A stretch of DNA of 64,000 bases from an uncultured Candidatus Saccharibacteria bacterium (lineage in GTDB: Bacteria > Patescibacteriota > Doudnabacteria > UBA920): assembly GCA_964348935.1 (NCBI GenBank), contig CAYGEJ010000001.1, forward strand, positions 51,807 through 115,806, in the 5' to 3' direction. Positions 3,890-57,174 of this stretch are shown here, piece after piece. A program made the translations under genes and the position numbers. The notes under the pieces were generated by a model, which was not told the origin of the DNA, made no database searches, and saw only the letters and a list, made by a program, of their open reading frames with translations. Numbering within the stretch: position 1 is the stretch's first letter; each line of letters begins with the position of its first letter.

Positions 3890-4573
3890 ATGAAATTAGA
3901 CATGCAAAATAAAAATAAAACTACCACAAAAAGTACCCAGAGCTTTTTAAGAATATCTGAAATAAAAAATGACACAGTAGTAATGGATGACGGTACGCTA
4001 AGGGCAATAGTGGCTGTTTCAAGTACAAATTTTGATCTTAAAAGTCAAGATGAGCAAAATTCCATAATTTTTAATTTCCAAAGATTTTTGAATTCTTTAG
4101 ATTTTTCTATTCAGATTTTGATGCAAAGTCGAAAAATGGAAATTGGGGGCTATATGGAAAAGTTAAGGCGATTGGCTGAAAAACAGACAAATGAGTTGCT
4201 TCGCGTGCAAACTATTGAATATGTGGAGTTTATAAATAGACTTATTGAAAATGCGAGCATTATGAATAAGAATTTTTATATTATTGTCCCGTTGGGGACT
4301 TCCATATTACCGGTTGCATCTGGTTTTTTCTCGAACTTATTTGGTAATGGTAAAAATAAAGAGATTGCCCAAAAAATAGAGAATTTTGAAAGAGAAAAAG
4401 AAAAATTAGATACCCGAGTTTCCTCTTTATTATCTAACTTATCCGGTATAGGAATAAGGGGGGTTCCTTTAAAAACCGAAGAGATTATTCAATTGTATTA
4501 TAATTCTTATAATTTTGAAGCAGGTCCTCTAATAAACCCGTCGCAACTTAAAGATATTAAGATTAGTGAGTAG
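3890..4573 (+). CDS. VirB4/TrsE-like conjugal ATPase, N-terminal fragment (split gene)
   Basis: 227-aa ORF resembling the N-terminal domain of Gram-positive-type VirB4 (FLRISEIKNDTVVMDDGTLRAIVAVSSTNFDLKSQDEQNSIIFNFQRFLNSL..IQIL). It ends just before the four-helix-bundle gene. The downstream ORF continues with the next conserved VirB4 segment. Confidence 0.55.
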   Translation: MKLDMQNKNKTTTKSTQSFLRISEIKNDTVVMDDGTLRAIVAVSSTNFDLKSQDEQNSIIFNFQRFLNSLDFSIQILMQSRKMEIGGYMEKLRRLAEKQTNELLRVQTIEYVEFINRLIENASIMNKNFYIIVPLGTSILPVASGFFSNLFGNGKNKEIAQKIENFEREKEKLDTRVSSLLSNLSGIGIRGVPLKTEEIIQLYYNSYNFEAGPLINPSQLKDIKISE

Positions 4574-4587
4574 TTACTAGGTGCTAG

Positions 4588-5007
4588 GTGCAAGTGACTA
4601 GTATCAAACAAGCAGATATTAAGTATTTAATGAGTAATTCTATTATGTCGATATCTCATTATAAAGAATTAATAGTTTGGCAAAAATCTATGAATTTAGT
4701 AGATCTAATATATATAATAACTAGACAATTTCCAAAGTCGGAAACTTATGCATTAGCAAGTCAGATGCAAAGGTCAGCAATTTCTATACCTTCTAATATT
4801 GCAGAAGGGCAAGGTAGAAATCATAAAGCAGAATTTGTACACTTTTTAGGTATATCTTTTGGTTCCTCTGCCGAATTAGAAACACAAATTTTAATAGCTA
4901 AAAAACAGTATCCGCTATTAAATTATAATAAAGCTGAGGATTTATTAGTAGAAGTACAAAAAATGTTATCAGTTTTAATTAATCGTTTACTAGTCACTAA
5001 CAACTAG
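4588..5007 (+). CDS. four helix bundle protein (23S rRNA intervening-sequence protein family)
   Basis: 139 aa with the family signature (ELIVWQKSMNLVDLIYIITRQFPKSETYALASQMQRSAISIPSNIAEGQGR...FLGISFGSSAELETQILIA), as I recall this family. Located between the two VirB4 fragments. Confidence 0.8.
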   Translation: MQVTSIKQADIKYLMSNSIMSISHYKELIVWQKSMNLVDLIYIITRQFPKSETYALASQMQRSAISIPSNIAEGQGRNHKAEFVHFLGISFGSSAELETQILIAKKQYPLLNYNKAEDLLVEVQKMLSVLINRLLVTNN

Positions 5008-6872: not shown

Positions 6873-6958
6873 ATATTTTACAGAAACTATAACCATAACA
6901 ATAACGCGAAATAGGTAGCTGTTATAGTTGTGGTTATTATTTATAGGTAGGATTTTTT

Positions 6959-9454
6959 ATGGCAGATGACCTGGTAGATGAATTAAATACTGACAGCTCT
7001 AGTTCTCCGACGGCACAAGATGTGGACGCTTTGTCAAGCGAACAGGTGTCTTCTAATACGGTTAAAGTTAGAGAGCTTTTTAAAACCGGGAATACTGACA
7101 GAATTATTTATGATATTTCCACAGATGGTAAACCAAAACGTACTTCCGGCTGGAGAATTCATGACAATAGCCAGGTAGAAATTTCAGGAAGCGGACTTGG
7201 AGTTTATGATCAGGTTGTTTTGTGGATAAGTGGTAGTCCTTTTTATCATAAAAATTTAGGAGGTCGTGAACAAGGGCGGTTGTTAACTTTTCAGGTTGAA
7301 GATTTAAGTAATTTGTACAGTGAAGGTACTCCGGTTGAAATTCAATTTGTTGATTCTAAAAATCCGGAAAATAGTAGATTTTTACAGCAGAAATTTACTT
7401 ATGTACAAGCAAAAACCGATGAAGAACAAGCGAAAAAAAGTCCGGAAGATGTAGAGAACGCAAGATTAGAACGACAAAAAGAGGATGCAAAAATAAATGG
7501 CCCAATGTCTGTGATGATGGACGGTATGGGGCAAGCTATTGGAGGTGTTGGTGGTGTACTACCCAGCAGTGCCAATAAAGATATTAGACCAAAAGGAAAT
7601 ATAGAAAATAATCAAGCAGTTCCTGCTAAGAGTAGTCTTTCTCAGAATGTGGAAGAAGGTGATTCTATAGATACTGAAGAGAATTTAAGTGTAGATGGTG
7701 AGGTTGTAAATTCATCTACCAATGTATCGGATGATAGAGTTCCGATTAGTGAAATGGGAACTGTGAAAAAATCTGATATTTCCCAGGATTCTTCCACTAC
7801 GGTTACAGAGAGTAGTACTCAAAAAACTTCAGGGAATTTGGAATCATCCAGAACAGTAAAAGGTGGGGGTAAGTTAAATGGGGCTGGGTCAGTGAATGCG
7901 ACAGATGACGGAGCTGTGAGCTTGGGTGTTAAATCTCAAGTTTTGGAGACAGGAAATGATGGGGTGGTAGAAAAAGAACCAACACCACCAAATGCTATTG
8001 TGTCAGGTAAAGCTGAAAGTTCGACTCAAGAAAAACTTGATGTATTCGGAACAAGTCAAGTTTCGGAACAAGAACAAGCAAATTTTTCGGCTAATGGAAA
8101 CATTGGAACCTCTAAACAAAAAAAAGCTTCAGAGTTAAAGTCAAAAACTCAAACAGGAATAAGTTCTAGTACTAAGGGGCGAGTACAGGCTTCAGCTTCG
8201 AACCAGCAATTGAATACAGATGATTCAAGACCACAGGCAAGCACTATGTCTAGTGCTAATGCCACTGCACAAGCAAAGCCTTTAAAACCTCCTGCTGGAC
8301 TAGGAGCGATGAAGTCGCTTGAAATAAATTTAAACAAGACTTTGGGTGTGCCTCTAGGAGTTGGAAGTGCTCCCGGAGTATTAAATAAGCCTAGTGAAAT
8401 TACTAAAAGTAGTAATCAGCCTGAAACCAAGAATCAACCTACGACAGAATTGGAAGGTGAAACTATAAATCTTCAGGGGGTTGAAAGTGGACAGGGTTTA
8501 GAGGTTGGTGGTTTAGCCGAACCAGTAGTTCCTCATGAAGGTCAAGAAAAAAAACCGGATGTTGGTTTGGTCTTGAGTAAATCCGACAGAGCTGGTAGCG
8601 AGCCATTTAGACCAAAAACTGGAGTGGAGTCAAGAGGGAAGTCATTTGGTTCAGAAAGGCCTATTGGCGATTTAAACAGACGAACTGAGCCGGATGTTAT
8701 ATTAAATAAAAAGCTCAAGAATAATGAAGATTTGTCATTTGGTGAAAGGAGTTTGGGAATGTCGGCAAGACCGGCAGGTCCAGATGTTGCAGGTGGCGCT
8801 TCTGTCGGTGCGGAAACACAAGATCCGGTAGAGAGTGGAAAAAAGGATGGTGGTGAAACTCAGGATAGCGAGGAGGAGGCAGAAGAGGAAAATCTGGGTT
8901 TACAGCCAGTTATACCGGAAGAGGTAATGCCTGATCCAAGTACAAGCAAGGCGGACGCCTCGAAAGAGGATGTTGCTGACAAGGCTTTAAGTGTTATAGC
9001 AGATAGTAAAGCTGGAAAAGAATTGGTAGGTCAGGCCGTAAGTGAATTTTGGTGGTGGGGATTTGGTATTTCATCCGCTTCATTATTTATTGGTTTGGAT
9101 TTTTTAGCCGGTGCGGTAATAATGAATGTTTATTGGTGGAGACATAGAAAACAGCCAGAGCTTTTACCTATGAAAGGCTGGCAAAAAGTTGTTACAGTTT
9201 TTGCCAGTGTATTTCCTTTTTTTGTTATAACCTTTTTATTGGGATTATTTATGATAGTAGGATGTAATTATCCAATTCTTGGTAAGTATTCAAAATTAGT
9301 GAGTTATAAAACAACAGTCGTGGGAGCATTTATAGGGGAAGATTGTAAATATTTTGATATTACAAGTAGTTCCGAGCTAGATGGCACAGAGAATAACACA
9401 AATCCCCAAAATTTAACCCCTAATCCTTTAAATCCAAGGGGAGTGTCACCTTAG
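6959..9454 (+). CDS. large low-complexity (Ser/Thr/Gly-rich) protein with a C-terminal multi-TM anchor
   Basis: 831-aa ORF. Long disordered S/T/G/E-rich region, then hydrophobic helices near the C-terminus (FWWWGFGISSASLFIGLDFLAGAVIMNVYWW ... VFPFFVITFLLGLFMIVG). Immediately downstream of VirB4, so it may be a T4SS-associated surface or channel protein. Confidence 0.5.
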   Translation: MADDLVDELNTDSSSSPTAQDVDALSSEQVSSNTVKVRELFKTGNTDRIIYDISTDGKPKRTSGWRIHDNSQVEISGSGLGVYDQVVLWISGSPFYHKNLGGREQGRLLTFQVEDLSNLYSEGTPVEIQFVDSKNPENSRFLQQKFTYVQAKTDEEQAKKSPEDVENARLERQKEDAKINGPMSVMMDGMGQAIGGVGGVLPSSANKDIRPKGNIENNQAVPAKSSLSQNVEEGDSIDTEENLSVDGEVVNSSTNVSDDRVPISEMGTVKKSDISQDSSTTVTESSTQKTSGNLESSRTVKGGGKLNGAGSVNATDDGAVSLGVKSQVLETGNDGVVEKEPTPPNAIVSGKAESSTQEKLDVFGTSQVSEQEQANFSANGNIGTSKQKKASELKSKTQTGISSSTKGRVQASASNQQLNTDDSRPQASTMSSANATAQAKPLKPPAGLGAMKSLEINLNKTLGVPLGVGSAPGVLNKPSEITKSSNQPETKNQPTTELEGETINLQGVESGQGLEVGGLAEPVVPHEGQEKKPDVGLVLSKSDRAGSEPFRPKTGVESRGKSFGSERPIGDLNRRTEPDVILNKKLKNNEDLSFGERSLGMSARPAGPDVAGGASVGAETQDPVESGKKDGGETQDSEEEAEEENLGLQPVIPEEVMPDPSTSKADASKEDVADKALSVIADSKAGKELVGQAVSEFWWWGFGISSASLFIGLDFLAGAVIMNVYWWRHRKQPELLPMKGWQKVVTVFASVFPFFVITFLLGLFMIVGCNYPILGKYSKLVSYKTTVVGAFIGEDCKYFDITSSSELDGTENNTNPQNLTPNPLNPRGVSP

Positions 9455-10792: not shown

Positions 10793-12124
10793 ATGGTTAA
10801 ATCTCAATTAGTATTTATATGTAGTAACTGTCAATTTAAAGCCACCCGTTGGCAGGGGAAGTGCCCAGAATGTGGGCAGTGGAATTCTTTTGAAGAACAA
10901 AGGGTTACTATAACTGGAAAAAAAGGGTTCACAGGAATTGCTTCAAAATCTGTTGAGTTATCTGGGGTTGAGTTGTTAAATCATGCAAGAGTAAAAACCG
11001 GAATAGGAGAGTTTGATGAGGTCATTGGTTCAGGAATTGTGCCTGGAAGCTTAATATTGCTCGGTGGTGACCCGGGAATTGGAAAATCTACACTTGCCCT
11101 ACAACTTTCCATGCAAGTAAAAGCGGACGTGTTGTACGTCTCAGGAGAAGAATCGGTTAACCAAATTAAACTTCGAGCGAATAGATTGAATAAAAATCAT
11201 CAGTTGAATGTTTTGGCTGAAACCGATTTGCAAAGCGTACTTGCGAATGTAGATAGTCAAAAACCTGAATTGGTAATTATAGACTCAATTCAAACTATGT
11301 ATAGTGAAGAGGCGAGTGGTGTGGCTGGGGGAGTTGCTCAAGTGACTTTTGCTGTTCAGCAAATTATGCGTATGGCAAAACAAAACCATATTTCTTTTAT
11401 TGTAATTGGGCACGTAACAAAAGAAGGCTACTTAGCTGGCCCAAAAACTTTGGAACATATGGTAGACACAGTTTTGTATTTAGAAGGTGAGCGCTTTGCT
11501 TCTTTTAGAATTTTACGTTGTGTTAAAAACCGCTTTGGTACCACCAACGAAGTTGGAGTGTTTGAAATGCAAGGTGAAGGTTTGGTGGAAGTTAAAAATC
11601 CTTCCCAATTATTTTTAGGTGAAGATAGTATAAAAGCTTCTGGAAATGTTATAACTGCAGTCCAAGAGGGAAGCCGGGCATTGCTTTTAGAAATTCAAGC
11701 GCTTACCTCAATTAGTAATTTTGGTTACCCTAAAAGAACTACCGCTGGTTTTGATTCTAACCGTTTACAGTTGTTAACCGCTATTCTTGCTAAGCGCGCG
11801 GGACTTAACCTTTCTAACCAGGATATTTATATTAATGTAGTAGGTGGAATAAAAATAGAAGAGCCAACCGCAGACTTGGCCGTGGCTTTGGCTATTTATT
11901 CTAGTCTTAAAGATATTATTATTAGTGATACTGTAGTTATAGGTGAGCTTGGGCTTTCTGGTGAGGTTAGGTATGTTTCTAATTTAGAAAAAAGAATAAA
12001 AGAAGCAAGTAAGCTTGGGTTTAAAAAAGTAATTTGTCCAAAAAATAAACTGACCTTAAAAATTCCGGGAGTGGAAATTGTAGGTGTAAAAACTTTAAGC
12101 GAAGCTATTAAAAATATTTCATAA
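10793..12124 (+). CDS. radA: DNA repair protein RadA/Sms
   Basis: N-terminal C4 zinc finger (CSNCQFKATRWQGKCPECGQW), Walker A GGDPGIGKSTL, KNRFG motif and a Lon-like C-terminal domain. 443 aa. Confidence 0.9.
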   Translation: MVKSQLVFICSNCQFKATRWQGKCPECGQWNSFEEQRVTITGKKGFTGIASKSVELSGVELLNHARVKTGIGEFDEVIGSGIVPGSLILLGGDPGIGKSTLALQLSMQVKADVLYVSGEESVNQIKLRANRLNKNHQLNVLAETDLQSVLANVDSQKPELVIIDSIQTMYSEEASGVAGGVAQVTFAVQQIMRMAKQNHISFIVIGHVTKEGYLAGPKTLEHMVDTVLYLEGERFASFRILRCVKNRFGTTNEVGVFEMQGEGLVEVKNPSQLFLGEDSIKASGNVITAVQEGSRALLLEIQALTSISNFGYPKRTTAGFDSNRLQLLTAILAKRAGLNLSNQDIYINVVGGIKIEEPTADLAVALAIYSSLKDIIISDTVVIGELGLSGEVRYVSNLEKRIKEASKLGFKKVICPKNKLTLKIPGVEIVGVKTLSEAIKNIS

Positions 12125-12130
12125 ATAAAA

Positions 12131-12189
12131 GGGCGGGAAATGTCTACGACTTGCAGGTGTACGTAGATCAATTCTCGCCCTTTGTTTGG
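12131..12189. terminator. bidirectional intrinsic terminator (nested hairpin followed by a U-run on both strands)
   Basis: GGGCGGGA...UCUACG-loop-CGUAGA...UCUCGCCC followed by UUUGUUU on the + strand and UUUUAUUUAU on the - strand. Sits right after the radA stop and at the 3' end of the minus-strand peptide transcript. Confidence 0.5.
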
Positions 12190-12300
12190 AGCCCCATGAC
12201 CCCACTAAAGACTACCTGTCCGGGAAGTGGTTGGTTCCACTTCTCAGGCCTGGCAAACTGTGCCAGAGTCTCAAGTGAGAAAACGGTTCTGGGTTCTTGG

Positions 12301-12495
12301 TTATACAGGCATCAGGCCTGTCGTTTGGAAGACACTGAGACTACCTTTCTTCTCCGGTTTGGAGATTTTTTGAAAAGGTTCATGGCACATACTGCATTTT
12401 TGTGCCGCAATTGGCTGTAATATTCCACAGCACCAAGTTTCAGGTGGTCCCGTTTGAAGAACCTTTTTTGGTTCAGTCTCGGGTTTATTCTTCAT
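12301..12495 (-). CDS. small Cys/His-rich peptide (64 aa) with a zinc-ribbon-like CC..CxxCH motif
   Basis: ATG preceded by UAAGGAGCAACUACC. Sequence MKNKPETEPKKVLQTGPPETWCCGILQPIAAQKCSMCHEPFQ... The C-S-M-C-H-E-P-F segment is reminiscent of the CSxCHPF zinc motif of ribosomal protein L31, but the overall match is weak. Lies in a GC-enriched intergenic island. Confidence 0.45.
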   Translation of the reverse strand: MKNKPETEPKKVLQTGPPETWCCGILQPIAAQKCSMCHEPFQKISKPEKKGSLSVFQTTGLMPV

Positions 12496-12578
12496 GGTAG
12501 TTGCTCCTTAATTGATACCGATATGGCAATCGGCTGTCTATACCAGAAGGCAATCCGGCACAGACCTAACAAATCCCC

Positions 12579-12622
12579 CTGAAGATTTCATTTATTATAC
12601 TGAAATCTTCAGAAATGTCAAT
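12579..12622 (-). promoter_or_regulatory. consensus sigma70 promoter (TTGACA-N16-TATAAT) with the -10 hexamer inside a 12-bp inverted repeat, a putative operator
   Basis: Minus strand reads aTTGACAtttctgaagatttcagTATAATaaatgaaatcttcag. Arms CTGAAGATTTCA / TGAAATCTTCAG flank the -10. The -35 begins 2 nt after the recG stop codon. Confidence 0.4.
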
Positions 12623-12625
12623 CTA

Positions 12626-14689
12626 CTATTCAAAATGTATAATTTTTCCTTCGATTTTCTTTGCAAGTAGTAGGAAGTTTTTTAAGTTTATATCCACACT
12701 TATTATTTTTATGGCTTCCTCGCGGGCAATAGGAATTAAAGAAGTGTATGCAGGGGAGAAGTATTTAAAATTCCAACCAGATTGTTTGAAGCCATAAAGG
12801 TCGCCAAAGCCTCTTTGTTTTAAGTCTAGCTCGGCAAGCGCAAAACCGTCGGTGGTTTTACTAAAATCTTCCAGGCGTTTTTTGGTAAGTAAATATTGTT
12901 CTTCGTTGTTTATACCAACAGTTTCAGACATAAACAAAAAACAATAACTTTGATGCTCAGCTCTACCCACACGACCACGGAATTGGTGTAGTTGAGCAAG
13001 TCCAAAACGCTCAGCTCCTTCAATAAGCATGACCGATGCATTGGGGACGTCTACCCCAACTTCTACTACAGAAGTAGAAACTAGAATGTGAATTTTTCCA
13101 GCCAAAAAGTCCGCCATAACTTGGTCTTTATCTGCACTACGCATTTTTCCATGTAAGAGCCCAACGTTTAAACCTTTAAAAATTTTTTGCAAGGTCTCGT
13201 GCTCAGCTTTAGCAGACTTAATTTGTAAGCTTTCATTTTCTTCTATTAGTGGAGTTATTACAAAGGCTTGTCTGCCTTGTTTAATTTGTTCAGAAATAAA
13301 ATTATAAGCCTCGGTTCTTGAGTTTGGTTCTACTAAAAAAGTAGAAATAGCTTTTCTGCCCTGTGGTTTAGTTTTTATTTGGGAAATATCCAGTTCGCCA
13401 TAATAGGCAAGTTGTAGTGTTCTTGGAATGGGTGTGGCGGTAAGTGAGAGTAAATGCGGGACGCGACCTGTATTTTGCAAAAGAGAAGAGCGTTGCTCTA
13501 CGCCTAGCCTGTGTTGTTCGTCTATGGTTACCAGAGCTAATTTTTTAAATTTTACTTTGTCTGCAATTAAAGCATGGGTACCAAAATAAATACCAGGCAT
13601 TCCTTCAGCAAGGAGCGCCTGAAGTTTTTTCTTTAAAATTACTTCGCCGTTTAATTTACACTCTTTACTTGTAATTAAAGCTATAGTTACATCTTTAAAA
13701 TATTTTTGAGCAGAGGCGTAATGTTGTTTGGCAAGTATTTCTGTTGGAGCTAGGAACGCTGTCTGAAGTTCTTCTTTAGCGGTTTCTAAACTGGCAATAA
13801 AAGCTACCAGAGTTTTTCCGCTTCCAACATCACCCTCAACTAAACGATTCATAGGGGTATTTTTTTCAATATCTTTTAAAATATCCCAACTGGCTTGTTT
13901 TTGGGCTGGAGTGAGTTGGAAAGGCAGGCTGTCTACAAAGGATTTGACTAAATCTTTATTAAACTTAATTTTATAACTTTGTCTTAAGGCAAGTTCCTTT
14001 TTGTGCTTTTGGGCAAGTAGTTGATTTATAAATATTTCTTCAAACGCCAGCCTGGTTTTAGCTCGGTCTACCTCTTCCAGTTGTTTTGGGAAATGGCTAA
14101 TGTTAATTGTTTTTGAAATTGTTAGTAAATTGTATTTTTTTAAAATATCTTCAGGGATAATTTCTTCGACCTCGGTTGCTAATGAAAGTATGTTATTTAT
14201 TAAGTTTCTTAGCGTTTTTGGGTAGAGTCCTTCAGTCATGTGATAAATTGGGACAAGGCGGGCTGTGTGAAGCGGGAAATCGGAAATTTTTTCGTATATG
14301 GGATTGGTTAGTTGGAGTTGGTTGGCGTAATATTCCGGTGTACCGGACAGGTAGAGTTGGTCGCCTGGCTTTAGACTTTTGGCTAAGTAGGGTTGGTTGA
14401 ACCAAATAATTTTCAAAGCCCCGGTAGTGTCGAATACCTGGGCTTCTGCAAGTGATATATAACTTTTAAAAGATTTTCTACTCCCTATGCTTTTTAGCGT
14501 AACGGCTATAGTAGCCGGTTGTTCAGGGATTAGTTCTTGAATTTTTTTAGTGATTGAAAAATCTAAATATCTAAACGGAAAGTATAACAAAAGATCTCGG
14601 ACTGTTAAAATTCCGAGTTTTTTTAAAGCCGCAATTTGCGGCTTTGTAATTTTAGGAAGTACTTGAATTGGCGAGTTTATATTTAGCAT
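12626..14689 (-). CDS. recG: ATP-dependent DNA helicase RecG
   Basis: Wedge/helicase architecture. GDVGSGKT Walker A, DEQHRLGV (DEQH box), QFRGRVGR motif. 687 aa. Confidence 0.9.
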   Translation of the reverse strand: MLNINSPIQVLPKITKPQIAALKKLGILTVRDLLLYFPFRYLDFSITKKIQELIPEQPATIAVTLKSIGSRKSFKSYISLAEAQVFDTTGALKIIWFNQPYLAKSLKPGDQLYLSGTPEYYANQLQLTNPIYEKISDFPLHTARLVPIYHMTEGLYPKTLRNLINNILSLATEVEEIIPEDILKKYNLLTISKTINISHFPKQLEEVDRAKTRLAFEEIFINQLLAQKHKKELALRQSYKIKFNKDLVKSFVDSLPFQLTPAQKQASWDILKDIEKNTPMNRLVEGDVGSGKTLVAFIASLETAKEELQTAFLAPTEILAKQHYASAQKYFKDVTIALITSKECKLNGEVILKKKLQALLAEGMPGIYFGTHALIADKVKFKKLALVTIDEQHRLGVEQRSSLLQNTGRVPHLLSLTATPIPRTLQLAYYGELDISQIKTKPQGRKAISTFLVEPNSRTEAYNFISEQIKQGRQAFVITPLIEENESLQIKSAKAEHETLQKIFKGLNVGLLHGKMRSADKDQVMADFLAGKIHILVSTSVVEVGVDVPNASVMLIEGAERFGLAQLHQFRGRVGRAEHQSYCFLFMSETVGINNEEQYLLTKKRLEDFSKTTDGFALAELDLKQRGFGDLYGFKQSGWNFKYFSPAYTSLIPIAREEAIKIISVDINLKNFLLLAKKIEGKIIHFE

Positions 14690-31213: not shown

Positions 31214-31255
31214 CTAGTTGTATGTTATAAGTTGTAATAAGAATAGTAAAAAATA

Positions 31256-31289
31256 AACAACTCTGTACTATTAAAAGTACAGAGTTGTT
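31256..31289. terminator. bidirectional intrinsic terminator at the island 2 left edge (14-bp perfect stem)
   Basis: AACAACUCUGUACU-AUUAAA-AGUACAGAGUUGUU with U/A-runs on both sides. Serves gatB on the + strand and the minus-strand island operon. Confidence 0.5.
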
Positions 31290-31307
31290 TTAAAAATAAA
31301 AAAAATG

Positions 31308-31337
31308 CGTCGCCCATGCTGTGAAGCGAGGGCGACG
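31308..31337 (-). terminator. GC-rich intrinsic terminator of the minus-strand Cys-rich peptide operon
   Basis: Minus strand CGUCGCCC-loop-GGGCGACG followed by CAUUUUUUUUAUUUUU, 24 nt after the P3 stop codon. Confidence 0.5.
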
Positions 31338-31360
31338 GTTGGGTGGTTTGCGTTTCGTCA

Positions 31361-31684
31361 TTAAATAGGATGACGTGGGCTGTCGCCGAAAGGGTCGGAA
31401 TCCAGAAATTCTTTCCCTGGGTGCCCTGATTGGCTTGGTATGTCATCAGGGTTTCCAGAGGGGGTGTTGATGGTCGCACCCATCCAACCGTTATCCACAG
31501 CGGCTGAATTGTCTTCGAGGTAGTGCTCTTTCACACCACGTTTTGGCGACAGTAACCCGTCGGCGTATGGCGGGGCGATAATGATGGAATGTTGTAGTGG
31601 TTGCTGGCCAATCTTGTCGCAACAGTGACGTATGCTACAGGGTTGGTCAATTTCTTTATGGCAATTGCAAGGACATATCGCCAT
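31361..31684 (-). CDS. Cys/His-rich small protein P3 (107 aa), paralogue of the upstream 41-aa peptide plus a C-terminal extension
   Basis: Internal ATG of the 212-aa track ORF with an SD (UAAGGAGAAAAACU-AUG) that overlaps the stop of the preceding peptide gene. N-terminus MAICPCNCHKEIDQPCSIRHCCDKIGQQPL. GC-rich codon usage unlike the host. Confidence 0.5.
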   Translation of the reverse strand: MAICPCNCHKEIDQPCSIRHCCDKIGQQPLQHSIIIAPPYADGLLSPKRGVKEHYLEDNSAAVDNGWMGATINTPSGNPDDIPSQSGHPGKEFLDSDPFGDSPRHPI

Positions 31685-31695
31685 AGTTTTTCTCC

Positions 31696-31821
31696 TTAGT
31701 CTGTGAACGGGTGAGTTTGGTCGACCTCTTCGAGAGGTTTTCCTTTCTGCGAACAGCAACGGTGATTTTCGCACTCGTCGTTTTCTACTCCCACATGGCA
31801 AGAGCAGTGACAGGTTTTCAT
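31696..31821 (-). CDS. Cys/His-rich peptide P2 (41 aa): MKTCHCSCHVGVENDECENHRCCSQKGKPLEEVDQTHPFTD
   Basis: My own reverse-complement translation. ATG preceded by AAAGGAGGACUGGAAA. Not in the ORF track (under 60 aa). Shares C-x-C-x-C-H-x(6,7)-C-x(2,3)-H-x-C-C-x-K-x-G-x-x-P-L with P3. Confidence 0.45.
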   Translation of the reverse strand: MKTCHCSCHVGVENDECENHRCCSQKGKPLEEVDQTHPFTD

Positions 31822-31881
31822 TTTCCAGTCCTCCTTTGAATGAAATAGTAGCAAGAAAAGGGGAAAAAGGCAAAAAGAAAA

Positions 31882-31911
31882 CGCGGACAGGGTGGCAAGC
31901 CACTGTCCGCG
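31882..31911 (-). terminator. intra-operon intrinsic terminator or attenuator between the PEP-CTERM gene and the Cys-rich peptide genes
   Basis: Minus strand CGCGGACAG-UGGCUUGCCACC-CUGUCCGCG followed by UUUUCUUUUUGCCUUUUUCC. Confidence 0.4.
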
Positions 31912-31973
31912 TAAAGGTTGTAATGCGCGTTGCTATTTTTACCCAGCACTTTGCCGTGTGGTGGGGTTTCTTC

Positions 31974-32720
31974 TTACCGCTGGCGCCGTATCGCGGCAAT
32001 GCCTACGAGTCCAGCACCCATCAGTACGAAGGTCGTGGGTTCGGGAGTCTCGGTCCCAAGTCCACCCGACGGCTGGCTCGGAAAGCTGTAGTCCCAATAC
32101 TCAGGGTGGCGGTAAAAGTAAGGAGTGTGTTCACCCCTCAGGTAGTTTACAATCTCCCCAAGGTTGTTGATGTCGTAGGAGAACCACACTGAGGCGAGCA
32201 AGTAGTTATCGGTGTAACGATAACCGCTGTTAGTGCCGGCACAACCGCCACTAAGCCCTGCCAGAACCAAATCCCGGCAGTCGTAGGTACTGGTGGTGTT
32301 TTCTGATACCGCAATAAGCGACCTCGATTTTTGTCCGTAAACATGGGTTATGTTCTCGAACGGAAATAGGACTGTCTGGATATACGAGTTCGTTATAAAA
32401 CTCAACGATTCGTACAAGGTGTTAGTCCGTCCCGAGTTACTGGTTGGGTCTGTGAACATAGTAATGCTTACTTGATTGTCTTTTCTTTCGTTGAGACTTG
32501 AACCCTGGTAACTCGTAATCCAGCGACCAGAACCATCTGGGGCTTCGTATGACCCCTGATAGGTGGTGAGTGTGCGATAGTTGTAATCGTACCCATTGGC
32601 ATAACCACCATCTAAGTTGAGGTTCCAGGGCTGAAAATCGTCCTGGAGGACGATTGTGCCGGCCGTTGCCGACATGGCCAGAGCAAAAAAGCCGAACATA
32701 GAAATAAAAAGAGCGCGCAT
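31974..32720 (-). CDS. PEP-CTERM sorting-domain protein (secreted, Gly/Tyr/Asn-rich)
   Basis: Internal ATG with strong SD (AAGGAGGACUUAC-AUG). Signal peptide MRALFISMFGFFALAMSATAG. C-terminal TPEPTTFVLMGAGLVGIAAIRRQR is the PEP-CTERM tripartite motif (PEP, TM helix, Arg cluster). 248 aa from this start. The track ORF extends upstream to 32879 with no RBS. Confidence 0.6.
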   Translation of the reverse strand: MRALFISMFGFFALAMSATAGTIVLQDDFQPWNLNLDGGYANGYDYNYRTLTTYQGSYEAPDGSGRWITSYQGSSLNERKDNQVSITMFTDPTSNSGRTNTLYESLSFITNSYIQTVLFPFENITHVYGQKSRSLIAVSENTTSTYDCRDLVLAGLSGGCAGTNSGYRYTDNYLLASVWFSYDINNLGEIVNYLRGEHTPYFYRHPEYWDYSFPSQPSGGLGTETPEPTTFVLMGAGLVGIAAIRRQR

Positions 32721-32838
32721 GTAAGTCCTCCTTAAGGACTTGTGGAGCTTAAAAGCTCCACGGTTTTGTTCTTGGTTGGCCTTTAGGGGCCGAAAATAAA
32801 TAGATCGAACTGTTAAAAGTTTTACAGGTCGACGATAT

Positions 32839-32867
32839 ATTATACTCTTTTTTTGGGTTTTTGTCAA
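32839..32867 (-). promoter_or_regulatory. consensus sigma70 promoter (TTGACA-N17-TATAAT) of the island 2 operon
   Basis: Minus strand cattGACAaaaacccaaaaaaagagTATAATatatcg. About 115-nt structured 5' UTR, including a hairpin that pairs part of the SD (AAGUCC-UUAAGGA-GGACUU) next to the start codon. Confidence 0.4.
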
Positions 32868-32878
32868 TGCTAAATACA

Positions 32879-32906
32879 AATAACACCCTTATTTAAGGGT
32901 GTTATT
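32879..32906 (-). terminator. hairpin terminator or insulator at the island 2 right edge, downstream of the HTH gene
   Basis: AAUAACACCCU-UAUUUA-AGGGUGUUAUU (11-bp stem) then UUGUAUUU on the minus strand. Sits between the HTH gene stop and the island promoter. Confidence 0.4.
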
Positions 32907-32970
32907 TTTGGTTATTAGGTATTAGCTTATAGGTTTTAGTACAAAATTTATATTTTATACATAATTAAAG

Positions 32971-33225
32971 TTAACTGCTTGTGTTTGTTCTTTGCTTAGC
33001 TTTTTTATAAGCATTTTTAACCGTGACTAAATTTAGTCCAAGTTCCTTAGCAACTTCTTCAGGAGTTTTACCGGAGTCTACCATGTTCATTATTTGAAGC
33101 TGTCGTTCTGTAGCTTCTTTTCCTTTTGGGCTAAATTCTTCTAGAGCTCTACCAGCTTTAACTCTCATAGTAGGGTCTTCTAATACTTCTTGTAAATTTT
33201 TACTTAAGAATTTTTTCTCAGACAT
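32971..33225 (-). CDS. small DNA-binding protein with a sigma-70 region-4 / LuxR-type HTH
   Basis: 84 aa. LQIMNMVDSGKTPEEVAKELGLNLVTVKNAYKKAKQ resembles region 4.2 HTH. Start is a few nt from the miaA stop. Confidence 0.5.
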   Translation of the reverse strand: MSEKKFLSKNLQEVLEDPTMRVKAGRALEEFSPKGKEATERQLQIMNMVDSGKTPEEVAKELGLNLVTVKNAYKKAKQRTNTSS

Positions 33226-49760: not shown

Positions 49761-50447
49761 ATGGCAAAATTAGCAAAGAGAGTTAAAGCAAATAATGAAT
49801 TAGTAGATTTTAATAAAGTCTATTCAGCTGAAGAAGCTATTGAATTAGCTAAAAAGACTGCAACTACCAAGTTTGTTGGAAGTATTGAAGTGCATATTCG
49901 TACTTTAATTGAAGCCAAGAAAACAGACCAAGCGGTAAGAGGCACAGTTTCTTTGCCAAACGGCACTGGTAAAACCAAGCGCGTAGCCGCTTTCGTAACC
50001 GAATCCAAAGAAAAAGATGCTAAAGATGCGGGTGCTTTTGTGGTTGGTGGAGAAGATTTGATTAAGAAGATTAAAGAAACTGAAAAAACCGATTTCGATG
50101 TAGCTATTGCTGAACCAGCATTAATGCCTAAGCTTGCCGCTATTGCTAAAATTTTGGGTACTCGCGGACTTATGCCTAACCCAAAAACTGGCACCGTAGG
50201 ACCAAATATTGCTGAGATGGTAAAAGAAATTGCCGGTGGTAAAGTTAACTTTAAAAATGATGACTCCGGAAATATTCATCAAGTAATTGGTAAGACCAAT
50301 TTTGACAGTAAAGCATTGTTGGAAAATTTAAAAACATTTTATCAAGCGGTTTTACAAAGCAAGCCACAAACCGTAAAAGGACAATTAGTTGCCAGTGTGG
50401 TTTTAAATTCCACAATGGGACCTGGAATAAAGGTTAAAATAAGCTAA
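49761..50447 (+). CDS. rplA: 50S ribosomal protein L1
   Basis: From the internal ATG (MAKLAKRVKAN...), which gives the canonical L1 N-terminus. The track start at 49710 would translate through an intergenic hairpin (GGGACCCCGAUGUCCAUCGGGGGUUU). 228 aa. Confidence 0.9.
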   Translation: MAKLAKRVKANNELVDFNKVYSAEEAIELAKKTATTKFVGSIEVHIRTLIEAKKTDQAVRGTVSLPNGTGKTKRVAAFVTESKEKDAKDAGAFVVGGEDLIKKIKETEKTDFDVAIAEPALMPKLAAIAKILGTRGLMPNPKTGTVGPNIAEMVKEIAGGKVNFKNDDSGNIHQVIGKTNFDSKALLENLKTFYQAVLQSKPQTVKGQLVASVVLNSTMGPGIKVKIS

Positions 50448-50465
50448 TTATCTATTAAGTAAATA

Positions 50466-50494
50466 AGAAAGCCGGTGCATGGTTTGCACCGGCT
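50466..50494. terminator. rplA intrinsic terminator, also usable from the minus strand
   Basis: GCCGGUGCA-UGGUU-UGCACCGGC followed by UUUUGAUUU on the + strand and UUUCUUAUUU on the - strand. Confidence 0.55.
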
Positions 50495-50519
50495 TTTGAT
50501 TTGGGCGACGAAGTCATGG

Positions 50520-50654
50520 TTAGACTCCCCACAGGTATTGGTCATCATCAGGTTCTTGTGTTGTTGGTTGATCCAGTTTTTTATTGTTGGATTCCTCGTA
50601 AGGAAATCCGGTTGCATCTGCTTGATGAAAATCGCGTTGTGTATCGCTTTGCAT
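50520..50654 (-). CDS. possible 44-aa acidic peptide (MQSDTQRDFHQADATGFPYEESNNKKLDQPTTQEPDDDQYLWGV)
   Basis: My translation. ATG preceded by AAAGGGGGGCUUAUU. Lies between a minus-oriented terminator (50728-50750) and the rplA terminator. Not in the ORF track. Confidence 0.25.
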   Translation of the reverse strand: MQSDTQRDFHQADATGFPYEESNNKKLDQPTTQEPDDDQYLWGV

Positions 50655-50767
50655 AATAAGCCCCCCTTTGTGGCCTAATATCTGAGTATTTAAATAAACA
50701 GTCAGATATTAAAACACAAATAAAAACCCCGCTCCTTTTAGGGAAGCGGGAATTAAAGTTAAAGTAA

Positions 50768-50860
50768 TTAATTACTTGTTATAACCTTAACGAACCCAAA
50801 TTCCCTGGAGGAAATAAGGCTAAGAAGGAGAGACAACAAGTTTTGGTAAATATTTTTCAT
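50768..50860 (-). CDS. leaderless 30-aa hydrophobic peptide or sRNA module (MKNIYQNLLSLLLSLISSREFGFVKVITSN) driven by a consensus promoter
   Basis: Minus strand TTGACA(50891-96)-N16-TATAAT(50869-74), ATG 8 nt after the -10. Intrinsic terminator CCCGCU...AGCGGG-UUUUUUAUUUGUGUUUU at 50728-50750. Transcript about 130 nt and rich in anti-SD-like CUCCUUCUU/UUCCUCC. Coding status uncertain. Confidence 0.25.
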   Translation of the reverse strand: MKNIYQNLLSLLLSLISSREFGFVKVITSN

Positions 50861-50967
50861 GTATATAAATTATAGCTGATTTGGAAAAAGTGTCAAATGA
50901 CAAAATGAAAGCGACCCAGACTGCTTTCTCACTCGGTAAAGGTGAAGGGCTGTGGGGTCGCTTGTCG

Positions 50968-51246
50968 CTATTGGTTTGGCGTTAAAATCACCTCCTTTGA
51001 TGATTTGATTGCGGTTGGTTTTTGTACCATCCGTCGTGCTTCTCCAGCAAGTGAAGTTTCGTTTATTCTGGCAGACCAGATAAAGCGAGTTTCCTCTTGT
51101 GCAAGGTAGAAGCAGAATTCGTAATTCTCGTTACGGTGTTGAGCATTGTCTTTTAGGACAATGGTCACGCTTTTTCCGTCGAGAGTCGCGCTTATTCCAA
51201 CACAGGGAAAGTAGTTTTCAATTGGGTAAAGCAACTGCAGGGTCAT
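50968..51246 (-). CDS. hypothetical 92-aa protein (island 3)
   Basis: ATG preceded by AAAAGGAGCGUUU. GC-rich codons. Followed by a 7-bp stem/long-loop hairpin plus U-run. No recognisable domain. Confidence 0.45.
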   Translation of the reverse strand: MTLQLLYPIENYFPCVGISATLDGKSVTIVLKDNAQHRNENYEFCFYLAQEETRFIWSARINETSLAGEARRMVQKPTAIKSSKEVILTPNQ

Positions 51247-51352
51247 AAACGCTCCTTTTGTGGACTAAAAATTAAATCGACTCGGTGTCAATTTATTTTC
51301 CTAAGCCACAAAAAAAACCCGCCGCGGCGGGGAAGTAAGCTTAAATAAAACT

Positions 51353-51454
51353 TTAGCTATTTATTTCCCACAACCGCATAAATAAAGACTTGATGGACTT
51401 AGTGCCCATTTTGGTTGTCTTCTTGCTAATTTGGGAAACAATGAATAAATTCAT
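51353..51454 (-). CDS. second leaderless small-ORF or sRNA module (33 aa: MNLFIVSQISKKTTKMGTKSIKSLFMRLWEINS)
   Basis: Minus strand TTGACA(51484-89)-N17-TAATAT(51461-66), then ATG at the predicted TSS. Terminator CCCGCCGCGGCGGG-UUUUUUUU at 51318-51331. Transcript about 140 nt. Coding status uncertain. Confidence 0.2.
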   Translation of the reverse strand: MNLFIVSQISKKTTKMGTKSIKSLFMRLWEINS

Positions 51455-51540
51455 ATGAATATATTAAAGTATTTTAGAAATATTGTCAAAAAAATTCCCC
51501 GCCGGTTTGTAAGAGCCGGCGGGGTGTTTTGGATACCTTG

Positions 51541-51795
51541 CTACTTCAATAGTTGTAGATTTTGGCGGGCCCAGTTAATGAGTTCCTGCATCTCTTTTTT
51601 TGTAGGTTTTTCAAGCCCAAAGCCTTTGCCGTTTTTGTTCGAATAACCCTCACGAGACTGGCCACATAAAGTCAGATCGTGGTGTTGAAGAGGGTCTAAA
51701 CTTAGACTCAGCATCCTCATTCTGAGAGATTCGCCTTGAAGTTGAAATCCATATATTGCCTTCCCATTGGAAAGGTGGCCGTGAATTTTTTCCAT
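51541..51795 (-). CDS. hypothetical 84-aa protein (island 3)
   Basis: Internal ATG (MEKIHGH...) with SD UUUAAGGAGUGGGAAC-AUG. The track ORF starts 24 codons upstream with no RBS. Followed by terminator CCCCGCCGG-UUUGUAAGAG-CCGGCGGGG. Confidence 0.45.
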   Translation of the reverse strand: MEKIHGHLSNGKAIYGFQLQGESLRMRMLSLSLDPLQHHDLTLCGQSREGYSNKNGKGFGLEKPTKKEMQELINWARQNLQLLK

Positions 51796-51869
51796 GTTCC
51801 CACTCCTTAAAGTTTTTTTGCAACTTGGTTCTGGGGTTCTGTTAAAACTCCAAAATTTAGGTAACAAAA

Positions 51870-51893
51870 AACTCCTTCCGCCAAGGCGGAAGG
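51870..51893 (-). terminator. minus-oriented intrinsic terminator at the island 3 right edge (11-bp stem then U6)
   Basis: CUCCUUCCGCC-AA-GGCGGAAGGAG followed on the minus strand by UUUUUUGUU. No minus-strand gene lies upstream of it, so it reads as an insulator. Confidence 0.4.
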
Positions 51894-52074
51894 AGTAAAG
51901 TTTAAGTAAAAAACTATTAACTCAACCGTCTTGGAAAAGAAAGAATAATAATGCTTATAATAGAAATTTTATCCTGAATTAACTTCATACAAAGTAATTT
52001 TAAAGGAAACCTAGCCTTTTTGTCAATTACTGTAAGATATAGTAGAATTGAATATATTACTAAAATAAAATTAT

Positions 52075-52608
52075 ATGGCAGAAGAGCGAAAGCATTTTAG
52101 ACCTTCGTGGGATGATTATTTTATGGCTATTGCCAAGATAATTGCGGCCAGAGGAACCTGTGATAGGCTTTACGCCGGTTCAGTTTTGGTTAAAGATAAT
52201 AGAATTATTGCTACTGGATATAATGGTTCGCCAGCAGGGTTACCACATTGTAACGATGTAGGTCATTTACTTGAAGAAGGGCATTGTGTGAGAACTGTGC
52301 ATGGTGAACATAATTCACTATTACAAGCTGCCAGACAAGGTGGAACTGCCACACAAGGTTCAACTATGTATACCAAATATAGCCCTTGCATTCATTGTAC
52401 TAAGTACGTAATTGCTTGTGGAATTAAACGAGTAGTTATTGGTAAAATTTATAGAAACCCTCAAGCATTAGATATGCTTAAAGAAGCAGGTGTGGTGGTA
52501 GATGTGTATGCAGAAAACGAAAATTGGCGTGGGGAGTTAGGTCAAATTTTTATGGAAGATATTCCTGTCAGGCAAAATGAAGGTGAAGTAAAAATGGCAA
52601 ATAAATAA
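52075..52608 (+). CDS. dCMP deaminase (ComEB-type cytidine/deoxycytidylate deaminase)
   Basis: Zinc motifs H(G)EHN (TVHGEHNSLLQAARQG) and PCxxC (SPCIHCTKYVIACGIKRVV). 177 aa. Confidence 0.8.
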   Translation: MAEERKHFRPSWDDYFMAIAKIIAARGTCDRLYAGSVLVKDNRIIATGYNGSPAGLPHCNDVGHLLEEGHCVRTVHGEHNSLLQAARQGGTATQGSTMYTKYSPCIHCTKYVIACGIKRVVIGKIYRNPQALDMLKEAGVVVDVYAENENWRGELGQIFMEDIPVRQNEGEVKMANK

Positions 52609-56271: not shown

Positions 56272-56334
56272 TTGGGGTTTAAATTTAAATTGTGGCCGAA
56301 AGTGTAATTCGGCCGAAGTTTTTCGGACTCTTTG

Positions 56335-56547
56335 TTAGGAGTCCTGTTTTTTTGGTTGCTCAAGTCGGATCGCGGTTTTGTACGCCCATTTGGAAATGGG
56401 CATGAAAATCGAGATTCCATGGAGTATGGTCACTCCTACGGTGTTGCTAGTGCAACTTTCGGGAGTGTAGCACGCTCCATTTGCCATGGGTATTACCCAA
56501 AACTCGAGTGCCAGGCTCAGTAAGCCAAAACCAAGAAACCAATACAT
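56335..56547 (-). CDS. secreted or membrane-anchored 70-aa peptide with two Cys (island 4)
   Basis: ATG preceded by GUAGGAGGGCACA. Signal or TM segment MYWFLGFGLLSLALEFWVIPMANGA, then CYTPESCTSNTVGVTILHG... Divergent from the RHH regulator gene. Its stop overlaps a folA terminator hairpin. Confidence 0.45.
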   Translation of the reverse strand: MYWFLGFGLLSLALEFWVIPMANGACYTPESCTSNTVGVTILHGISIFMPISKWAYKTAIRLEQPKKQDS

Positions 56548-56654
56548 TGTGCCCTCCTACGGGTCATTGTTTGCAAAGACTTGTCAATTATTCTTTGCAC
56601 ACTAATTTTGCCATAAACCTTTGGGAATATCCATACCCCCAAAAAACGGTACCC

Positions 56655-56733: not shown

Positions 56734-57174
56734 ATGTCACAATATATCGATCGTCACAAAAACAAACGTATGGTTGCACCAAGACTGTGCGAAACCGAAA
56801 TCCAAAAGCTCATGGCAACAAGGATGTTGCCAGGTCACGACCGCCATTCGAGGTTAGAGTTTTTGCTTACGCTAATGACCGAATTAGCCGAGCAGGAACT
56901 TGAATATCGTTTGGCGCCTACTAATACAGAGGCAAGGCATGGGCACGGAACACATCTTCGTATTTCAGACGAGCTGTGGGACAGATTACAAACCTATGCT
57001 TCAGTGTATAGGATGAGAACAGGTGAGCTTGCTCACGAACTGATACTGCTTGGCCTAGAGCTAGTGGAAGAAATAGAGAAAGTGGTCAAGTGGCCACTTA
57101 GGAAGGAGGAGATAAAAAGCCGGTTTAAAAGGACACTTGAACTTCGGTATGGGCGCATGCGCCAGCCGATTTAA
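56734..57174 (+). CDS. tandem ribbon-helix-helix (RHH) DNA-binding protein, putative repressor
   Basis: Two beta-alphaA-alphaB units: KRMVAPRLCETEIQKLMATRMLPGHDRHSRLEFLLTLMTELAEQ and THLRISDELWDRLQTYASVYRMRTGELAHELILLGLELVEE. GC-rich. 146 aa. Confidence 0.5.
   Translation: MSQYIDRHKNKRMVAPRLCETEIQKLMATRMLPGHDRHSRLEFLLTLMTELAEQELEYRLAPTNTEARHGHGTHLRISDELWDRLQTYASVYRMRTGELAHELILLGLELVEEIEKVVKWPLRKEEIKSRFKRTLELRYGRMRQPI

Follow-up and report, generated by a model that had tools for sequence, protein, structure and literature searches.

The PEP-CTERM sorting signal is reportedly, in its classical setting, a trait of diderm bacteria, and the lineages of the candidate phyla radiation (CPR) are generally regarded as lacking an outer membrane. 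Proteins of the PEP-CTERM/exosortase system (PF07589, TIGR02595; Haft et al. 2006, 2012) combine a signal peptide with a low-charge body rich in Gly, Ser, Thr, Asn, and Tyr and a tripartite C-terminal tail, which is conserved on unrelated bodies, and they occur as large paralogous sets. The current study deals with a GC-rich island on the minus strand of a 64-kb stretch of DNA (contig CAYGEJ010000001.1; in the following, the window), which lies between gatB and miaA and encodes a protein with the same features, designated P1, and two small Cys/His-rich proteins, P2 and P3. The relatives of its gatB gene point to Candidatus Doudnabacteria (Patescibacteria/CPR) as the host, and in contrast to the known systems the 64 kb contain a single PEP-CTERM gene. 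The island is probably an old, vertically inherited, lineage-specific accessory locus in the hypervariable gatB-miaA junction, composed of two self-contained transcription units, and not the recently acquired or deliberately insulated cassette that had been proposed in an initial annotation of the sequence.

The closest parallels to the organization of the P1 unit are found among S-layer genes, whose expression layout comprises a strong promoter, a long, structured, mRNA-stabilizing 5' untranslated region (UTR), and a strong terminator. With these genes the P1 unit shares the consensus promoter, a 115-nt leader with a 5'-proximal stem-loop, a strong Shine-Dalgarno (SD) sequence, and strong terminators, as well as a fast-evolving protein sequence combined with conserved regulatory elements. 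By analogy, the layout would be that of a strongly expressed envelope-protein gene. As in the S-layer anchoring by PGF-CTERM and archaeosortase A, a sorting helix is located at the C terminus of P1, which has the look of a single, abundant protein of the envelope.

Composition and integrity of the island

The GC-rich block (positions 31330-32835; 1506 bp) is the sole stretch of more than 600 bp in the window that holds a GC content of at least 0.45. The initial annotation had given it a GC content of 52-55% in a host of about 35%; the contrast is real (35.8% across the remaining window), but the range describes the peak of the block, which tops out at 0.56 in 300-bp windows, and the mean is 49.7%. 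The GC content at third codon positions (GC3) is 0.58 for P1, 0.52 for P2, and 0.50 for P3, compared with a mean of 0.279 (standard deviation, 0.033; maximum, 0.34) for 59 host genes, which corresponds to z-scores of 6.8 to 9.3. The boundaries of the block are compositionally sharp, and the promoter, terminators, and flanks of the island are host-like in composition. Spurious long open reading frames (ORFs) are present on both strands of the block. The island is bounded by the gatB stop codon (31213) and a hairpin 3' of a gene for an 84-aa helix-turn-helix (HTH) protein, and no gene is interrupted, as originally annotated (Table 1).

The window is matched with 100% identity by assemblies from the single runs ERR3094302 (over 10.9 kb) and ERR3094292 (over 11.7 kb). 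The longer one covers both island junctions with wide margins, the shorter one the island plus about 0.5 kb of the gatA-side flank. Since two independent assemblies agree completely across the island, a chimera is excluded. No integrase, transposase, or recombinase ORF is present; no tRNA gene is located near the island (the nearest are 12 kb away), and its flanking direct or inverted repeats are only AT-rich ones at chance level. Atypical composition is the only test for a mobile element that the island passes.

Table 1. Features of the island and the adjacent HTH gene (positions in the window)
Feature	Position	Strand	Basis
Sigma-70 consensus promoter, TTGACA-N17-TATAAT, 12/12, A-rich spacer	32839..32867	-	Promoter scan
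5' leader of the P1 mRNA, 115 nt, four hairpins	32721..32835	-	Minimum free energy -37.4 kcal/mol, z = -5.1
P1, 248 aa, predicted signal peptide, Gly/Ser/Tyr/Thr/Asn-rich all-beta body (model), PEP-CTERM tail	31974..32720	-	ORF, HMMs, AlphaFold2
PEP-CTERM sorting domain of P1, residues 225-248: TPEP, hydrophobic helix, RRQR	31977..32048	-	PF07589, TIGR02595
Intrinsic terminator after P1, GC-rich hairpin GCGGACAGUGGC..GCCACCCUGUCCGC, then U-tract	~31870..31912	-	Folding
Pyrimidine-rich element upstream of P2, ~55 nt, contains the P2 SD AAGGAGG	31829..31884	-	L003 comparison
P2, 41 aa, Cys/His-rich (MKTCHCSCH...C..H.CC), no signal peptide	31696..31821	-	ORF
P3, 107 aa, N-terminal C-x-C-x-C-H-x6-C-x3-H-C-C, PPYADGLLSP, variable disordered tail	31361..31684	-	ORF
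Tandem terminators	31255..31337	-	Folding z = -9.6, also found by scan
HTH gene, 84 aa, LuxR/sigma-70-region-4-type	32971..33225	-	PF00196, 25.1 bits vs 23.5

An orthologous island at the same site

A diverged natural orthologue of the island is present in two further runs, SRR12901047 and SRR12901042. In the locus of a related species assembled from the former (L003), the gene order cupredoxin, miaA, HTH gene, island, gatB, gatA, gatC, secA is that of the window, and an island of about 50% GC in a background of 37% carries orthologues of P1 (64% identical), P2, and P3. The housekeeping genes of the two loci share 78-86% nucleotide identity, and the gatB products are 86% identical at the amino acid level. 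Codon-level comparison (dS according to NG86) gave a dN/dS of 0.205 at a dS of 1.39 for P1, 0.16 at 1.45 for residues 1-73 of P3, and 0.34 at 0.82 for 31 codons of P2; the corresponding dS values are 1.43 for gatB, 0.93 for gatA, and 0.90 for miaA. The island genes are thus under purifying selection, and the synonymous divergence of P1 and P3 equals that of the flanking gatB, as expected from vertical co-inheritance since the split of the lineages. The GC3 of P1 is 0.58 in the window and 0.65 in L003, with host genes at 0.27-0.28. Since the orthologous island is equally GC-rich and has a flank-like dS, the high GC content is not the fresh signature of a foreign origin, contrary to the recent acquisition suggested in the initial annotation.

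The coding sequences of the two islands are about 73% identical, and the regulatory parts are better conserved (90-100%). The two loci hardly differ in the promoter and in the first 50 nt of the leader, identities are about 95% for the P1 terminator and about 90% for the 3' tandem terminators, and the pyrimidine-rich tract ahead of P2 differs by one base over about 56 nt. L003 harbors an additional unit (4378-4846; also L005 1-468), whose 115-aa product is secreted and contains an Nfu_N domain (PF08712, 34.4 bits); the unit has a second copy of the four-hairpin leader, a similar signal peptide, and its own terminator. This unit is missing in the window exactly between the P1 terminator stem and the GCGTTTTC run, which in L003 comes after the terminator of the Nfu_N cassette.

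P1 is a PEP-CTERM protein by sequence

The designation of P1 as a PEP-CTERM protein is borne out by two models with curated cut-offs, i.e., PF07589 (26.2 bits; gathering cut-off, 20.7; residues 225-246) and TIGR02595 (19.3 bits; cut-off, 16). Its tail is tripartite and located at the extreme C terminus (TETPEP-TTFVLMGAGLVGIAAI-RRQR, directly followed by the stop codon; C-terminal end ...TPEPTTFVLMGAGLVGIAAIRRQR), and residues P226, E227, and P228 are invariant in all five members of the family. At the sequence level, P1 can accordingly be classified with the PEP-CTERM proteins. The N terminus MRALFISMFGFFALAMSATA is hydrophobic after a basic residue and residues 2-15 were modeled as a helix, which together indicate a Sec signal peptide. 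D147, C148, and C160 are likewise invariant across the family, and the two cysteines are consistent with an extracytoplasmic disulfide.

The P1 family is small. Word-indexed searches of 5.8 billion proteins gave 2, 2, and 5 clusters, and the P1 family comprises five of them; the three members with genomic context are all located in a Doudnabacteria gatB locus, whereas the remaining two lie on short contigs or have the promoter and GC3 signature in common with the locus. No donor-like homologue from outside the lineage was present among these proteins. Scans of JGI metagenomes with peptide patterns and the 30-nt conserved leader gave no match, nor did a scan of viral contigs with the P1 family, and none of the PADLOC defense models matched P1, P2, P3, or their relatives.

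The AlphaFold2 model of P1, calculated from a five-sequence alignment, has a mean pLDDT of 81.8 with a core mostly above 90. Of its eight long beta strands, six have 16-24 residues and two have 9-13; one short strand and a single short helix beside D147-C148...C160 complete the model. Foldseek comparisons with PDB and BFVD retrieved TM-scores of at most 0.34, with 0.10-0.15 for the best-ranked matches. Low TM-scores and a model based on five sequences thus permit no finer assignment of the fold than a beta-meander with long strands, a gentle curvature, and no close relative of solved structure. The resemblance of the model to the walls of outer-membrane beta-barrels and to beta-pore-forming proteins is purely structural; the best matches cover parts of barrels with 12 to 22 strands and not closed 8- to 10-stranded ones, the strands of P1 lack a clear lipid-facing hydrophobic face, and in contrast to the barrels P1 has a helical membrane anchor.

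Conserved expression signals

The textbook promoter and the structured 5' UTR of about 115 nt recognized in the initial annotation were both confirmed (Table 1). The promoter 29-mer (32867-32839) occurs once in the window and is the same in the L003 orthologue, and no further copy of promoter or leader was found within the window. A nearly identical promoter including the A-rich spacer precedes the gene of a P1 homologue with 33% identity (P0008 in locus L086, 40-190; TTGACAAAAAGTCCAAAAAAATGTATAAT, compared with TTGACAAAAACCCAAAAAAAGAGTATAAT in the window). The P0008 gene has a GC3 of 0.75 inside flanks of 0.39-0.42 GC.

The fourth hairpin of the leader sequesters the AAGGAGG SD of P1. Three copies of the leader are available for comparison (window, L003 P1, and the Nfu_N-like gene of L003), and compensatory changes affect 7 of its 29 base pairs. 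Since these pairs change on both sides while pairing is kept, an RNA structure is favored over a protein operator. The first inverted repeat of the leader had been considered as such an operator and was set aside, as the stem formed by this repeat shows covariation in the second copy of L003. A covariance model of the leader (R1) was run against the window and 50 loci (L003, L005-L053) and matched only in the window and in L003/L005. Rfam yielded no match for leader or island, neither in E-value mode on the region nor in gathering mode on the whole window; the sub-threshold chance matches of the leader were Histone3 (18.5 vs 34) and Srn266 (26.9 vs 63).

Folding also supports the internal terminator and the terminator at the end of the island that had been annotated. 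The latter is a tandem structure in which a GC-rich hairpin (31337-31308) with a U-tract is followed by an AT-rich hairpin (31290-31255) also facing gatB. Upstream of P2, TTGCCT-N17-TACTAT (31873-31845) is a weak candidate promoter with 8/12 consensus positions, which is under the threshold of the scan. The strong SD sequences are indeed exceptional for this host, because only P1, P2, and P3 reach a complementarity of at least 6 nt among the 55 genes checked, 24 of which have none. The overlap of the P2 stop codon with the SD of P3 was likewise confirmed: the TAA lies inside the AAGGAG motif, which is 11 nt ahead of the P3 ATG. Compared with dinucleotide shuffles, the island mRNA folds with a mean z of -1.7, and gatB, gatA, and miaA range from 0 to -0.6.

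The Cys/His-rich pair P2 and P3

P2 and P3 are paralogues, as previously assumed; they share the pattern C-x-C-x-C-H...C...H-(x)-C-C with a pairwise E-value of 6e-4, and the alignment, in which P2 matches the N terminus of P3, extends into a P(P/H)(Y/F)xD motif. In P3, six Cys and two His are located inside 19 residues. L003/L005 contain a homologue of P3 (P0004), and L010 has one at the same site (E = 2e-6); these homologues keep the Cys/His cluster and PPYxDG. A P2/P3 profile searched with HMMER against 1.84 billion representatives (reporting threshold, E = 0.001) retrieved only the P0004 orthologue and a repeat protein matching the P3 tail.

Given this Cys/His pattern and the absence of a signal peptide, a metal-thiolate cluster in the cytoplasm seems likely. 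The closest parallels are the metallothioneins of bacteria (SmtA/BmtA, PF02069) and Cu/Zn-thiolate "CxC" domains, as P2 and P3 are equally small, pack six Cys and two His into about 20 residues, and share CxCxC and CC arrangements, and P3 is predicted to be disordered without metal. They differ in the spacing, the PPYxDG motif, the long variable tail, and the lack of any sequence match, i.e., no metallothionein or Zn/Cu Cys-rich domain of Pfam or NCBIfam at E ≤1 and no PDB sequence at E ≤10 with the P2/P3 profile. The only Pfam line for P2 is an EGF-like match at chance level (E = 0.047; 14 vs 27 bits), and P3 matched no Pfam or NCBIfam model. AlphaFold2 modeled P3 with a pLDDT of 53 and without secondary structure.

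The P3 tail (residues 56-96, window 31396-31518; DIPSQSGHPGKEFLDSDPFG) matches the seven-fold repeat of P0005 (E = 1.9e-7), an 846-aa secreted repeat protein with the unit ELPDQSGHAGKxLTTDGTDPAW. A weak repetition of the GxP...DxxP(F/Y)xD motif found in P2 and mid-P3 is likewise present in this tail.

The gatB-miaA junction of Doudnabacteria

The junction was compared over 48 Doudnabacteria gatB loci, in which the convergent genes gatB and miaA are conserved. The gap between them is 38-63 bp, and the site hence empty, in L034, L038, L044, and L046, ranges from 0.3 to 4.5 kb in most of the other loci, and reaches about 11.5 kb in L089. Seven further genomes (L006, L009, L029, L030, L037, L043, and L052) contain ORFs with PEP-CTERM tails in convergent orientation to gatB, and remoter P1 homologues with 26-33% identity occupy the same site in other Doudnabacteria. 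After removal of the tail, the bodies of the junction proteins fall into at least three unrelated families, of which family A comprises the window, L003, L029, L009, and P0008, family B L043 and L052, and family C L006 and L030. As in the known PEP-CTERM/exosortase systems, a conserved tail is thus attached to unrelated bodies. The junction PEP-CTERM genes have a GC3 of 0.57-0.75, in each case above that of the gatB gene of their own host (0.27-0.59), and mostly strong SDs and long leaders. In L010, a P3 homologue (CACPCH...CC, then PPYPDGSL) is located at the junction without a PEP-CTERM gene, so that the two units represent independent modules.

The junction resembles flexible genomic islets in its variable length, zero to about 11.5 kb, its recurring surface proteins, and the lack of mobility genes; the present island differs from such islets in that it is conserved with a flank-like dS, is not strain specific, and keeps its atypical GC3.

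Several further observations were made at these loci. The gap of L089 (1787-13310), a GC-rich genome, contains a family-A PEP-CTERM gene, a GH1 glycosidase, and at least eight ORFs (77-683 aa) without a Pfam match, none of them with multiple transmembrane helices. In other genomes a different small-protein family fills the gap (L020 3934-4137, L021 8010-8252, L023 7765-8106, L017 6483-6656, and L022 7584-7784); its members have an N-terminal ...NRDEIME.FFG... motif, and some end in a zinc-ribbon-like CGY.LN.DGSC.GC. Small selfish-looking genes are interspersed in otherwise syntenic housekeeping operons of relatives (L003 7366-7719; L090 4455-4808 and 12596-12880), among them four-helix-bundle genes of the 23S_rRNA_IVP type and, between gatA and gatB, a GIY-YIG gene; they are missing at the corresponding positions of the window.

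Neighboring gene and further observations in the window

The HTH gene next to the island overlaps the miaA stop codon by 8 nt and belongs to the variable region. It is host-like in composition (GC3, 0.21), shows 28% identity to its L003 counterpart, and is missing from genomes with an empty site. An identification with EpsA, the XrtB/PEP-CTERM-associated regulator (TIGR03020), was rejected, as the score was 27.2 bits against a cut-off of 170 and the LuxR-type HTH alone aligned.

Elsewhere in the window, the 1.6 kb or so after rplK-rplA (50447-52075) contain no convincing plus-strand ORF where rplJ/rplL are expected, and only minus-strand ORFs of 92 and 108 aa; the GC content peaks at 0.45-0.46, and there is no Rfam match. 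A 500-bp gap (12124-12626) between the ORFs 10793-12124 (+) and 12626-14689 (-) has a GC content of up to 0.48 compared with 0.36 and no Rfam match either. The highest GC3 outside the island (0.47) is that of a 146-aa ORF (56734-57174), which is preceded by a GC-elevated, ORF-poor segment (56301-56650). Near the start of the window, a gene for a PrgI-family membrane protein (PF12666; 3389-3835) adjoins ORFs of 615 and 831 aa (5025-9454), which suggests a type-IV-secretion or conjugation-like cluster. Extension past the window ends by exact-protein look-up added 7 kb of unannotated genes at one end.

Discussion

The combination of an orthologous, syntenic island under purifying selection with a synonymous divergence as in the adjacent gatB argues for an old accessory locus with two units. 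In the first one, the consensus promoter, the stabilizing leader, the strong SD masked by a hairpin, and the terminator would yield large amounts of P1. The conserved hairpin over the SD suggests that translation may be conditional or standby dependent. P1 would be exported via Sec and anchored in the cytoplasmic membrane by its PEP-CTERM helix, and an exosortase-type enzyme encoded elsewhere would presumably process it. The beta-sheet body, possibly stapled by a disulfide, could then be displayed on the cell as a rapidly evolving component with a role in the envelope, in adhesion, or as a pore-like structure. In the second unit, P2 and P3 would be translationally coupled, and their transcription would depend either on the conserved element ahead of P2 or on polymerases that read through the P1 terminator. 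They are most likely small cytoplasmic Cys6His2 proteins that bind Zn or Cu as a metal-thiolate, with a disordered tail carrying PP(Y/F)xDG.

Several observations weigh against parts of this interpretation. As already noted in the initial annotation, no exosortase is in view: neither exosortase nor archaeosortase was detected in the 64-kb window (Pfam on ten membrane or secreted proteins), among the scanned multi-transmembrane and gap ORFs from about 620 kb of Doudnabacteria loci (Pfam), or in the precomputed Pfam annotation of 10-kb flanks in two further genomes, so that the processing step of P1 is hypothetical. The window holds a single PEP-CTERM ORF, where classical systems have many. No genes for extracellular polysaccharides (EPS) were seen in the window or related loci, and full-text literature searches retrieved no paper linking PEP-CTERM or exosortase to CPR genomes. 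The high expression of P1 is deduced from sequence signals, and the position of its SD in a hairpin could mean low or conditional translation. The structural model of P1 is built on five sequences, and its TM-scores to PDB do not exceed 0.34. That P2 and P3 bind metal is guessed from their Cys/His pattern, and neither metallothionein nor zinc-finger models matched. In P2 of L003, codon 32 is an in-frame TAG and one Cys is lost through a CC-to-CY change, and P2 may hence be dispensable. Finally, an NG86 dS of about 1.4 approaches saturation, so that the argument from amelioration is semi-quantitative.

This argument concerns the least ordinary feature of the island, its persistently high GC3. 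With about 0.7 synonymous substitutions per site and lineage and a host equilibrium GC3 of about 0.27, an inherited GC excess should largely have decayed. The likeliest explanation is that a high GC3 is a maintained property of this gene class, owing to selection on the mRNA (its structure or stability) or to a biased process such as gene conversion at a recombination hotspot. An older transfer within the phylum, by which GC-richer Doudnabacteria would have donated the island through recombination in the gatB and miaA flanks before the window and L003 lineages split, would instead make the GC content an ameliorating relic. Doudnabacteria genomes do range from about 37 to 51% GC with a gatB GC3 of up to 0.59, family-A homologues occupy the same site in GC-richer genomes (L009 and L029), the PEP-CTERM genes of GC-richer genomes also have strong SDs and consensus promoters, and genes turn over frequently at the junction although mobility genes are absent. 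We nevertheless regard such a transfer as unlikely, though deserving serious attention, because at a flank-like dS of about 1.4 the GC3 is still 0.58-0.65 in both lineages compared with 0.27 in the host, a discrepancy that depends on the expected rate of decay, because PEP-CTERM genes exceed the GC3 of their host even in GC-rich genomes, and because the HTH gene of the same variable region is fully host-like. A recent acquisition from a diderm, EPS-producing donor with an exosortase has far less in its favor. PEP-CTERM is reportedly a diderm trait in the classical case (Haft et al. 2006), and composition and codon use are far from those of the host, with no exosortase in view; but the L003 island at the same site has diverged as much as its flanks, the five family members among 5.8 billion proteins include three in the gatB locus of Doudnabacteria itself, metagenome and viral scans gave no match, integrase, tRNA, and att-like repeats are absent, and promoter, terminators, and flanks have the base composition of the host. 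This origin is already contradicted and very improbable.

Two other explanations question the genes themselves. GC-rich islands of AT-rich genomes are often structured RNAs, and the block might primarily be a non-coding RNA with ORFs as by-products of a stop-poor, GC-rich sequence, in accordance with the highly conserved and strongly structured leader and 3' end, the mean z of the transcript, and the spurious long ORFs on both strands. The dN/dS values of 0.16-0.21 for P1 and P3 at saturated synonymous sites contradict this explanation, as do the predicted signal peptide, the HMM-validated PEP-CTERM tail, the confident fold prediction, the missing Rfam match, and homologues that keep invariant Cys, Gly, and PEP residues at 26-33% identity; it can hardly apply to P1 and P3, and the case against it is weakest for P2. 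An assembly chimera, a contamination, or a synthetic insert, to which the sharp compositional boundaries and the textbook expression signals might point, has practically no probability left, since it is refuted at the assembly level by the two identical single-run assemblies and by the diverged natural orthologue in SRR12901047 and SRR12901042.

With an old, vertically inherited locus as the preferred explanation, a more far-reaching scenario can be formulated, which we consider doubtful at present. Doudnabacteria might run an unrecognized PEP-CTERM/exosortase-type pathway that displays abundant, rapidly diversifying, barrel-wall-like proteins, which could form an oligomeric pore or lattice for host-cell contact; their genes would be a distinct class in which selection on the mRNA keeps the GC3 at about 0.6-0.7 independently of the genomic GC content, and the Cys6His2 proteins would represent a linked, new family of metal-cluster proteins.

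The island provides a natural example of atypical GC content and codon use that are not evidence of a recent transfer, as they persist over about 1.4 synonymous substitutions per site. This bears on the reading of compositional island detectors and suggests that one class of genes is subject to selection or to a biased process. P1 and P2/P3 represent two orphan protein families, the former with a confident and unusual long-stranded beta-sheet model. Above all, a validated PEP-CTERM signal occurs in a class of the CPR and recurs there in at least three unrelated protein families. The PEP-CTERM genes of Doudnabacteria thus predict an exosortase-like enzyme and the surface display of proteins in organisms whose envelope biology is almost unknown.

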